This document shows positions 3,324 to 53,005 of a stretch of DNA of 64,000 bases, in pieces. The notes under the pieces were generated by a model, which did not search any database, was not told the origin of the DNA, and saw nothing but the letters and a program-made list of their open reading frames with translations. The first letter of the stretch is position 1; each line of letters starts with the position of its first letter. The stretch comes from Octopus vulgaris (taxonomy: Eukaryota), in assembly GCA_951406725.2 (NCBI GenBank), contig OX597830.1, positions 72,478,001 through 72,542,000 of the forward strand, given 5' to 3'. The translations under genes were made by a program, and so were the position numbers.

Positions 3324-3452
3324 CATACATACATACATACATACGTACTTTTATATAATTTGTACTTTTACTGCTTATGAAATCAGCGTATGATTTCAAG
3401 AGAAAACTTATAAAGTGACAAAGCGAGATGATTTTAAACCTAGTCGCGGTAA

Positions 3453-3514
3453 GAGCCACTGATGAGCATTAAGCTGCGTAAGCATTAAAATGCGAAATCA
3501 TCGATGATCTGTTG
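3453..3514 (+). ncRNA. Type I hammerhead ribozyme motif
   Basis: CTGATGA 3459-3465; stem II GCATT/AATGC with inner TGC-GTAA-GCA hairpin; GAAA 3494-3497; palindromic stem III ATCATCGATGAT; AUC triplet, predicted cleavage after C3509; stem I weak (gcca/tgtt). Confidence 0.8.
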
Positions 3515-3890
3515 ATGCTGTAGGGAAATTGCCTCCCTTGTCAGTCAGTCATTAATATAGTGTTTGTATACATATATTAATTTTGGTGCTGATTAGTAAC
3601 CTTTGTCACTTTGTGACGTATATAATTCTGCCTTTAGGTTGTGAAATTGCGAATTACCCACCCACACATTATATATATATATATATATGTATACATAAAG
3701 TTTGAAGTGGTGTCCGGATTTTATATTTTAAGAAAAATGAAGTAGTCAGGAGTTGAATGAACTATTTATAGATAATATTTTATCCAAATCCTGATCACCT
3801 CCATATATTTTAATATATATATTTATATAAATATATATATATATATATGTATATATGTATATATATATTTGTATATATGTATATACATAT

Positions 3891-18262: not shown

Positions 18263-18850
18263 TTGTCTCAGTCATTAGAATGTAACCATGCTGGTGCACA
18301 TCCTTGAGGAACTATTAGACGAATGGCTCGAAACCAGTAGTATTTAAACCTGGTACTTATTCTGTCGATCATTTTTCGCAAACCTCAAAGAAACAAAATC
18401 GTTAACTCACCAGCACCGTTTGATAAGCGGTGCGGGGAGACAAACACAGACACAAAGGCACACGCACGCAAACACAAACATGCACACACGCCATCGCACG
18501 CGCACAGTCACTCGCGCGAGCGTATATATATATATATATACACAACAACAACATAAACACATATGTATTTAAAGCAAATCAAATACAAAATATAAGAAAT
18601 TCCCCTGAATCGTTCACAATTGATAGAATGAAATCGATAGAGTTCAAGTGCGACGTTTCGGAAATAGGCCTTCTTCAGCTACTAGAGGAAACATTTCAGA
18701 GAAAGAAGAGAAAAAGTAAATCCAGCATAGAGCCAAGAAAAGGCAGGTGGCTGAGGTTCACGGTCTTCCACACAGGTTTCGTATGACAAATTCACTCACA
18801 ATGCATTTGTCTGCCCGGAAATATAGGAGGCGTCATCTGCCCTGAGACAT
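18260..18850 (-). mobile_element. Old family-A SINE interrupted at ~18540-18770 by another insertion
   Basis: Tail and body blocks (cagtcatt, ggtacttattct, ggggagacaaacacagacac, attcactcacaa) match family A. Confidence 0.7.
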
Positions 18851-30219: not shown

Positions 30220-30258
<39 letters not shown>

Positions 30259-30309
30259 AATATTAAATTTCTAAATATCTCATAGAGATATGTGCGGTGG
30301 TGGAGCGAT

Positions 30310-30555
30310 AGAGTGGTTGTATACTGTCAACTTAACGTGACAGTCCCGTAAAGGGAATTACACCACCACTATTTAGCCCTAGGAAGCATCGACGCTTCCT
30401 GTCGGCCTTGACACATTTCCTGTGTCTTTGTATATTTACGAAGGAGAGACAAACACCCCCAACAGCTAGGCCTGCGTCGATGCTTCCTAGGGCTAAATAT
30501 CGGTGGTGTAATTCCCTTTACGGGACTGTCACGTTAAGTTGACAGTATACAGCCA

Positions 30556-30559
<4 letters not shown>
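30310..30559. mobile_element. Foldback element with 86-bp inverted arms (3 mismatches) and a 78-nt spacer
   Basis: 30310-30395 is the reverse complement of 30474-30559; lies between (TA)n arrays. Confidence 0.85.
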
Positions 30560-30620
<61 letters not shown>

Positions 30621-30623
<3 letters not shown>

Positions 30624-30977
30624 TGGCAGGGCTTACTGCTAGGAGTCGGCCGTACGCTAGAAATAGACCATCAATGATCAAAACTACAAGGAAATTCTCT
30701 AGGGGAAAAATACAGCGAACACCAGAACCAACTTTGGCGGGCATGACAGATGAAAATTTATATAAAAAACAGAATTAAATACATACCTCGGTTTCAGCCT
30801 TAACAAGAGAATTACTTACGTAATTCAAATGTCCGTGCTTCTTCAGTGCATCCGTTCATTGTAATGTAAACGGTGAAACCAACCCCAGCTTTCGTGCCAG
30901 TACAGACACGTGTGTAGTTTCACCGTTTACACTAGTGATAAAATTTCAAATGTCCCTAGCAGTAAGCCCTGCCAATA
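30621..30977 (-). mobile_element. 357-bp hammerhead-bearing element with a perfect 23-bp terminal inverted repeat, in (TA)n
   Basis: tattggcagggcttactgctagg (30621-30643) / cctagcagtaagccctgccaata (30955-30977); internal 15-bp stem 30865-30879/30917-30931; HHR at 30779-30851. Confidence 0.85.
30779..30851 (-). ncRNA. Type I hammerhead ribozyme motif (best preserved in the window)
   Basis: Minus strand: ATGCA-CTGAAGA-AGC acg GACA ttt GAATTAC gtaa GTAATTC tct TGTT aag GCT-GAAA-CCGAGG-TA-TGTAT; GUA triplet, predicted cleavage between 30784 and 30783. Confidence 0.85.
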
Positions 30978-31075
30978 TACACATATATTAGAATTTTCTC
31001 TGACTTCTCAGATTTTTGTATGCTGGACTACTGGTCTTAAATTGATATTAAAATTAATATTAATTTATCTCCCTC

Positions 31076-31162
<87 letters not shown>

Positions 31163-31685
31163 GTATATGTATGTATATATATATATATATATATATGTAT
31201 ATGCACATGTATATGCATATATATATATGCGTGTGTATGTGTGTGTATGTATGTATGTATGTATGTATGTATGTATGTATGTATGTATGTATGTATGTAT
31301 GTACAGAACACTTACTATTCGCGATGTTCATGCGCAAACATCGAATATTTTGGAGTGATTGATCTAAAATTGTTTTAATACCGGCCAACCCATATTGATT
31401 TTGTTGCGTAGCAACACATCAGGGCTGATCTTGCAAATTTATCAATTAATCAAAGCGTTCTCACCGTGAACATCACGACATTATTTTTTTAAAGGAACAT
31501 ACCAAATGCTTTATTTCTTCTATTCAGCGACAGCAAACTGTGATTTGAAAGGATTTTAGCCAGACAAATTAGCAGAAGGGAAAACATTTCTCACCGTCTC
31601 ACAATAACCTTAATCTTGATCTGTGCCGTCTGCAAAGTACACACACACAAAAACTTACAATCACGCATAGAGTGGCAGTGATATA

Positions 31686-37605: not shown

Positions 37606-38030
<425 letters not shown>

Positions 38031-49385: not shown

Positions 49386-49728
49386 TTTAAAATTTTAAAG
49401 AGAAAAAATTTGACAAGTCAGTCAGTCACCGGCTGACACTCGCTGACGATGCATCGAAGAGGCCAGGGAACAGAAGAAAGAAGAAGAAAGACATGCACCC
49501 AACACCAGAGCTGAAGACACCTCTGAAAGTGGGGGGGGGGCACATCAAAACCGTAGAGGAGTAGGGGCCGAAACCGGACGTGGTTCCTCCTGATGATGTC
49601 TTGAGCTGACTGGTGTTGGGTGCATGTCTTTCTTCTTTCTTCTGTTCCCTGGCCTCTTCGATGCATTGTCAGCGAGTGTCCGCCGGTGACTGACTGACTT
49701 GTCAAATTTTTCTCTTTAAAATTTTAAA
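49386..49728. mobile_element. Foldback element with ~130-bp near-identical inverted arms
   Basis: 49386-49519 is the reverse complement of 49597-49728 with few mismatches or indels; 77-nt spacer. Confidence 0.88.
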
Positions 49729-52878: not shown

Positions 52879-52880
<2 letters not shown>

Positions 52881-53005
52881 AAAGTTAAAAAATACAAACT
52901 GGGACAAGAACGTGAAACATTTAGAAGACGACACAAAAAACACAGACTGGACATTCGAAGCCTTCAATCTTCAGTCAAGAACCGGATCATCTTCGCAATT
53001 TCGAT
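52879..53005 (-). mobile_element. TA-tailed short element, same family as 37895-38030
   Basis: Shared tcgaaMttgcgaagaYgatc..gactgaagattgaa..cgaatgtcc.gtc and acgttcttgt tail. Confidence 0.75.

Follow-up and report, generated by a model that had tools for sequence, protein, structure and literature searches.

The window analyzed here, a 64,000-nt stretch of the Octopus vulgaris genome, contains a ~460-bp element composed of two oppositely oriented pieces of one 540-nt repeat unit, which meet head-to-head (Table 1). The main arm shares 93% identity with the natural unit in locus L012 and 99% with locus L002, and its 3′ end lies at a fixed site of the family (site A), followed by (TA)n. The inverted arm likewise has its 3′ end at a second fixed site (site B), also followed by (TA)n. 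The first-pass annotation had described a shorter element bounded by perfect 23-bp terminal inverted repeats (TIRs), both abutting TA repeats. The 23-bp inverted match is indeed perfect and the left arm touches a TA run, but the 23 bp are not the ends of the element, because family sequence continues for ~100 nt past the right end proposed there, up to 31080, before (TA)n is reached. The accompanying view, in which the inserted 3′ terminus served as template for the inverted end, has to be abandoned as well, since the inverted arm holds ~100 nt (unit 441-540) that are absent from the main arm. As to the recent insertion read from the perfect match, 23 bp say little on age, being the short overlap of two pieces from a young family.

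Table 1. Features of the inverted retrozyme insertion and its flanks (window positions; unit positions refer to the 540-nt tandem unit)
Feature	Position	Strand	Remarks
(TA)n run beside site A	30581..30620		likely target
Main arm	30617..30954	-	unit positions 104 to ~441 of the 540-nt tandem unit; 5′-truncated
23-bp inverted match, left half	30621..30643		partner 30955-30977; perfect; overlap of the two arms
Small stem-loop	30639-30626		immediately before site A, inside the left half of the 23-bp match
Type I hammerhead motif	30779..30851	-	predicted cut between 30784 and 30783
Hairpin upstream of ribozyme	30865..30931	-	15 perfect pairs in the window copy
Head-to-head junction	30953..30954		2 bases compatible with both arms (microhomology)
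Inverted arm	30953..31080	+	unit 413-540, ~100-nt tail included; 98% to unit
(TA)n run beside site B	31081..31228		likely target

All hammerhead core elements named in the first-pass annotation, including the 5-bp stem I and the three-segment stem II with its GUAA loop, are present on the minus strand in the order of a type I hammerhead (CUGANGA / GAAA / UH with stems I-III). Stem I pairs 30851-30847 with 30783-30779 and includes one G-U, at 30781, where the family has G-C; this C-to-U change occurs in only 2 of 159 other segments. The catalytic core CUGAAGA (30846-30840) is followed by stem II (30839-30796, with segments of 3, 4, and 7 bp), GAAA (30795-30792), a short stem III, and GUA before the predicted cut. 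The motif goes beyond chance: the type I descriptor matched once in the 64-kb window, and 20,000 base-shuffled versions of the initially annotated 357 nt yielded no match. Five other CUGANGA sites in the window have a partial hammerhead look (3440-3540, 37900-38010, and 49495-49600 on the plus strand; 18580-18695 and 52880-52990 on the minus strand), and none of them passed the descriptor. In Rfam, no hammerhead match was obtained for the element: all four matches in one search were unrelated, and no hammerhead was among the 150 of 333 matches listed in a second search. The perfect 15-bp stem reported upstream of the ribozyme (30931-30917 with 30879-30865) was also recovered; this hairpin is imperfect in most family copies, with four pairs changed on both sides within the family. 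When the monomer was folded, stem II was firm, stem I had pair probabilities of 0.33-0.48, and stem III had 0.01 or less; the monomeric catalytic fold is predicted to be weak. Moreover, the basal pair of stem II, usually G10.1-C11.1, is A-U in the window copy, A-C in other young subfamilies, and G-C in older ones, and loss of the usual pair in young subfamilies may lower activity. Ribozymes of this kind have been reported to work as dimers (PMC4209133, in the text available).

A search of the window's genome (2.8 Gb) returned 1234 first-look candidates, the best 40 of which were scored. None of the 39 other full-length matches among these begins before base 24 of the 357-nt query, and the 5′ arm is thus no general property of the family. 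In the 29 other loci retrieved, what precedes base 24 and what follows base 357 join to form a single 540-nt unit, which occurs in partial and whole tandems with a period of 540-547 nt. Exact patterns identified 500 ribozyme cores and 499 tail ends genome-wide, with reversed-pattern controls at zero. The unit has the layout of a non-LTR retrozyme: it is short, non-coding, and tandem, with one type I hammerhead each and no LTR, PBS, or PPT. No long reading frame was found in it, and none of the 175 mapped family loci, which are part of ~500 copies, is joined to coding sequence. These 175 loci, collected in four different searches and thus not a random sample, reduce to 148 distinct elements, of which 147 were classified: 68 single-arm insertions, 76 two-arm insertions, and 3 complex cases. 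Across the classified insertions, 5′ ends are scattered along the unit while 3′ ends are fixed, clustering at site A (unit 434-449) and site B (unit 528-540), ~100 nt apart. The family thereby displays an anatomy of the Penelope-like element (PLE) type, with 5′ truncation, partial tandems, an inverted 5′ copy, and an optional tail. A larger mirror-image set of several truncated pieces, ~2.5 kb in extent and unlike the simple two-arm insertions, is present at L064/L065 (G000:C1:197065771-197070075).

The first-pass annotation had singled out the window copy as the most likely to be active. That ranking is contradicted by the copy itself, which lacks unit positions 1-103, carries a single ribozyme, and has the rare C-to-U change in stem I, and by the existence of several tandem loci with 2-4 complete ribozymes spaced 546-547 nt apart. 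Judged from its sequence, the window copy is a young product and not a likely source. Arrays of 3-4 ribozymes with the same spacing (G000:C2:8129421-8131542, C2:52898618-52899774, and C3:50453884-50455041) are better candidates for source loci.

The arms of two-arm insertions follow a nearly strict rule. Their 3′ ends face outward in all 76 cases. For the family sample as a whole, a TA-rich neighbor was found at 181 of 225 outer 3′ ends and 47 of 69 outer 5′ ends (raw counts in a repeat-rich genome, without a background rate); because TA flanks mask it, a target-site duplication of ~8-10 bp, as expected for a PLE, is unreadable in the 540-nt family. Both outer ends lie at A or B in 56 two-arm insertions, comprising 54 A+B, 2 B+B, and no A+A pairs, whereas independent choice of site predicts A+B in half (P = 2e-14). 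Two of the 54, L003 and L004, are one duplicated event, leaving 53 A+B insertions. In each of the remaining 20 two-arm insertions, one arm ends elsewhere, paired with B in 15 and with A in 5. One arm lies within the other in 37 of the 53 A+B insertions and neither lies within the other in 16, the window copy among these; in 45 of the 53, the B arm reaches beyond site A. Inner ends are no more than 15 nt apart in just 3 of 53 A+B insertions, so palindromic junctions are rare. The junction overlaps by at least one base in 45 of the 76 two-arm insertions, as measured from rough BLAST ends. In 38 of 39 testable cases, the likeness between sister arms exceeds that to the median other copy (97% versus 91%), indicating that both arms were derived from a single source at the same time; such likeness would fit one RNA molecule and one master locus alike and does not separate the two.

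These counts bear on how the inverted arms arose. The closest competitor retains the same retrozyme and derives the inverted arm from fold-back self-priming, whereby a single cDNA or an antisense template would turn back on itself and be copied from its own sequence, as has been proposed for rotifer Penelope elements (PMC3846280, in the text available). The 37 nested insertions, the near identity of sister arms, and the overlapping junctions are all compatible with this route. However, in the 16 non-nested insertions each arm has sequence missing in the other, and fold-back of a single cDNA cannot give those; the other 37 fit either model. The rarity of palindromic junctions also speaks against fold-back, which by itself offers no reason for the second arm to stop at the other fixed site, and we regard it as rather unlikely. 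It is far less credible that the two arms are independent insertions into one TA run at different times. TA runs do collect unrelated elements, as at L100, L285, and the neighbor at 30253-30556 in the window, but the arms meet directly without a TA spacer, their orientation is invariably outward, sisters have common subfamily variants in 38 of 39 cases, and A+B pairing is far from random. Because of that pairing (54 of 56) together with the 16 non-nested cases, two separate primings at sites A and B are preferred over fold-back, and we consider them moderately probable.

Two further alternatives concern the nature of the element itself. A DNA-transposon MITE with 23-bp TIRs and a hammerhead present by chance would account for the perfect inverted match and for the TA at the left end, yet it is barely conceivable given the paralogues: the 5′ arm occurs in 0 of the 39 other scored copies, the right arm lies inside a longer piece, and copies are tandem, 5′-truncated, and non-uniform in length. 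Inverted overlaps range from none to ~500 bp and are specific to each copy, as the comparison of paralogues advised in the first-pass annotation revealed; fixed TIRs common to the copies were ruled out in this way, and the preference already expressed there for a ribozyme-bearing retroelement was borne out. There is also a slim chance that the unit is not a free-standing retrozyme and represents instead the pseudo-LTR of an autonomous PLE, with its coding part outside the sampled loci. Retrozymes have been related to PLE pseudo-LTRs (10.64898/2026.07.22.740005) and solo and opposed ribozyme pairs have been derived from PLEs (PMC4209133), both in the text available, and the sample covers only part of the ~500 copies. 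Against this stand the direct reading of unit into next unit, the lack of a long reading frame, and the absence of coding sequence from all 175 mapped loci. The identification of the element as a non-LTR retrozyme, i.e., a non-autonomous Penelope-like element, is made with high confidence. That the window stretch is one inverted, 5′-truncated insertion of this 540-nt family, likely mobilized via RNA by a PLE RT with a GIY-YIG endonuclease, is also quite likely.

Whether the ribozyme has been functional was approached through sequence variation. In 294 segments, none of the 12 catalytic positions is polymorphic (at least 5%), compared to 19.5% of other positions (P = 0.07), and position 7, which is free to vary, is the one polymorphic site of the core; taken alone, this conservation would be weak evidence of selection. 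For covariation, 71 ribozyme variants were found and 69 were used, one row from another family and one mis-cut row being left out. Six pairs change on both sides, and none of 500 shuffles reached the covariation score. Sister families (L232-L261 and L264-L289) are older, share 70-80% identity, and have the same layout, tail, and two end sites; they carry the canonical G10.1-C11.1 pair and GUC or GUU cut sites. In 23 chosen rows from sister families, all five stem I pairs covary (0 of 500 shuffles), and stem II is re-formed from other nucleotides; the evidence here is confined to the stems, because the rows were found with a pattern that fixes the core. The scores count sequences and not independent events, related rows not being independent. 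The covariation of stems I and II across subfamilies indicates that the fold was selected, and selection retained the ribozyme in the lineage. Cleavage in vivo by the predicted motif is reasonably probable.

Ends at the cut site and assembled contigs were also considered. The 5′ ends of 5 of ~102 arms fall within 3 nt of the ribozyme cut, against 1.5 expected (P = 0.017), and genome-wide pattern matches at unit 272-275 include 16 true junctions out of 26, compared to 4 of 15 just upstream. A downstream AT-rich control gave true junctions in ~16 of 64 matches by eye, with other AT-rich windows at similar rates. The excess of 5′ ends is lost against the AT-rich control, and the pile-up may reflect in vivo cleavage or, equally well, microhomology with TA. 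Four contig sets, whose RNA status is guessed, were aligned to one unit, and all gave some coverage of it. One 573-nt contig from another organism (run X9, RNA status likewise guessed) extends across the unit and wraps around, which is evidence neither of a circle nor of transcription, because genomic tandems would produce such wrapping and it is also found in X18, a large run. The idea of a spliced form came from a donor-like motif at the cut site and was discarded, since the four contig sets contain no GT-AG joint.

A search for GIY-YIG sequences returned 6136 candidates, and 148 of 150 scored match, many of them in 781-codon frames. One locus was tested and contains an RT as well as a C-terminal GIY-YIG with a Cys linker, similar to the one described for Neptune and Nematis elements (PMC8557442, in the text available). 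The genome thus has the machinery for mobilization, in the form of many such elements. In 30 GIY-YIG loci of the 6136 candidates, DNA likeness between the family and a helper was never better than E 0.04, and a helper search by way of GIY-YIG loci and the tail and ribozyme patterns yielded only non-coding sister families. The sole PLE fragments near family copies (L100 and L285) are separated from them by a TA run. An abundant and apparently young PLE family, represented by L037 and related loci, has 781-codon open frames encoding RT, the Cys linker, and C-terminal GIY-YIG; a scan reaching 1.5 kb from its 3′ end detected no hammerhead. Other hammerhead families occur near GIY-YIG loci at L039 and L034, with an opposed pair in L039.

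The hairpin next door in the window (30253-30556) is a head-to-head insertion of another, unrelated repeat family (3064 first-look candidates). Members L303, L304, and L306 of this neighboring family contain a minimal hammerhead, its stem III palindromic, immediately upstream of the portion found in the window. Its ~50-nt tail is present at one end only, and 11-13 nt flanking matches were seen in 5 of 9 hand-picked loci. Among 19 loci inspected by eye, the tail is at one end in 15, at both in 1, and at neither in 1, while the other 2 loci end elsewhere. The one-tail rule in this family (15 of 17) is the same as in the 540-nt family (54 of 56).

A working model would begin with transcription of a multi-unit locus, followed by cleavage of the transcript to unit length, and perhaps its circularization, by the ribozyme, probably acting as a dimer through its near-palindromic stem III. 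A PLE protein would cut both strands in (TA)n, site A priming one DNA end and site B the other; the two cDNAs would stop early and be joined head-to-head via a few complementary bases. In the window copy, the A-primed side would thus be ~340 nt and the B-primed side ~128 nt, and their overlap of 23-25 bp mimics a TIR. More generally, there is an even chance that Penelope-type integration is intrinsically two-ended and asymmetric. On this account one complex would cut both strands and prime each end at a different fixed RNA site, producing the tail and the inverted pseudo-LTR in the same step, and retrozymes of at least two unrelated families that pass as MITEs would have recorded the process hundreds of times per genome.

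As an element, this family is ordinary: a further hammerhead retrozyme from an animal, Penelope-like in its anatomy. In families of this kind, short inverted copies resemble MITEs and would be misfiled as DNA transposons. The near-strict pairing of one A with one B end, together with the non-nested arms, places a numerical constraint on how PLE tandem and inverted structures form, whose origin has been named an open question (PMC8557442, in the text available). This constraint is testable in the existing in vitro PLE system (PMC11167929), for which the 540-nt non-coding RNA is a small substrate. Should two-ended asymmetric priming be true, the tail and the inverted pseudo-LTR would be explained by one step. 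No paper was found that describes this 540-nt family, or that counts A/B pairing within insertions or tests it against fold-back, although subscription papers, Repbase, and supplements may hold either.

The tandem and inverted arrangements, the tail, and the (TA)n targets have all been published for retrozymes or PLEs, so the family is a non-LTR retrozyme with a PLE anatomy already known in kind. In LINE-1 twin priming, two primings produce a 5′ inversion whose pieces meet head-to-head with microhomology; these pieces overlap very little, and the site of the second priming varies. In contrast, both sites are fixed in the present family, and the B arm extends beyond site A in most A+B insertions (45/53). 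Non-LTR retrozymes are tandem non-coding units with type I hammerheads that have been proposed to be moved by PLEs (PMC7229834; 10.64898/2026.07.22.740005). The window family resembles the metazoan members described in the available text of these two sources in its tandem unit, which is non-coding and carries a single type I hammerhead, its low GC, its many solo and partial copies with few multimers, and the presence of PLEs in the same genome. It differs in the length of the unit (540 nt, versus ~300 typically and 51-972 reported) and in stem II, which is long and has three segments. In the window family, known here from genomic sequence, most copies are dispersed and truncated, with inverted arms and two fixed ends, features that are not part of the retrozyme descriptions compared. 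As a point against ribozyme activity, eight of nine predicted frog retrozymes in one study were without cleavage in vitro (10.64898/2026.07.22.740005).

Among PLEs, partial tandems, inverted 5′ copies, an often one-ended tail, and (TA)n targets are on record (PMC8557442; PMC3846280, in the text available). The window family shares with EN+ PLEs of the Neptune/Naiad type 5′ truncation, partial tandems, an inverted 5′-truncated copy, head-to-head junctions, an often one-ended tail, and (TA)n targets, and is unlike them in having no coding frame and a tail of ~100 nt versus 30-40. The presence of one tail per insertion, counted here as 54 of 56, is treated qualitatively in the available text of those two papers. 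The closest biochemical parallel is with the anole Poseidon element PAc, which in vitro cuts and extends both strands, with two start sites bounding the tail (PMC11167929). Two internal RT start sites that bound a tail, a stem-loop at the start, and AT-rich targets are common to PAc and the window family, as would be cutting and extension of both strands and a predicted protein dimer. Less favorably, the ribozyme of the anole PLE depended on protein and was dispensable for insertion (PMC11167929). In bulk, PAc gave no difference in start site between strands, and pairing within single events was not addressed (PMC11167929); unlike that bulk result, the genomic copies analyzed here point to the use of different sites at either end of a single insertion.
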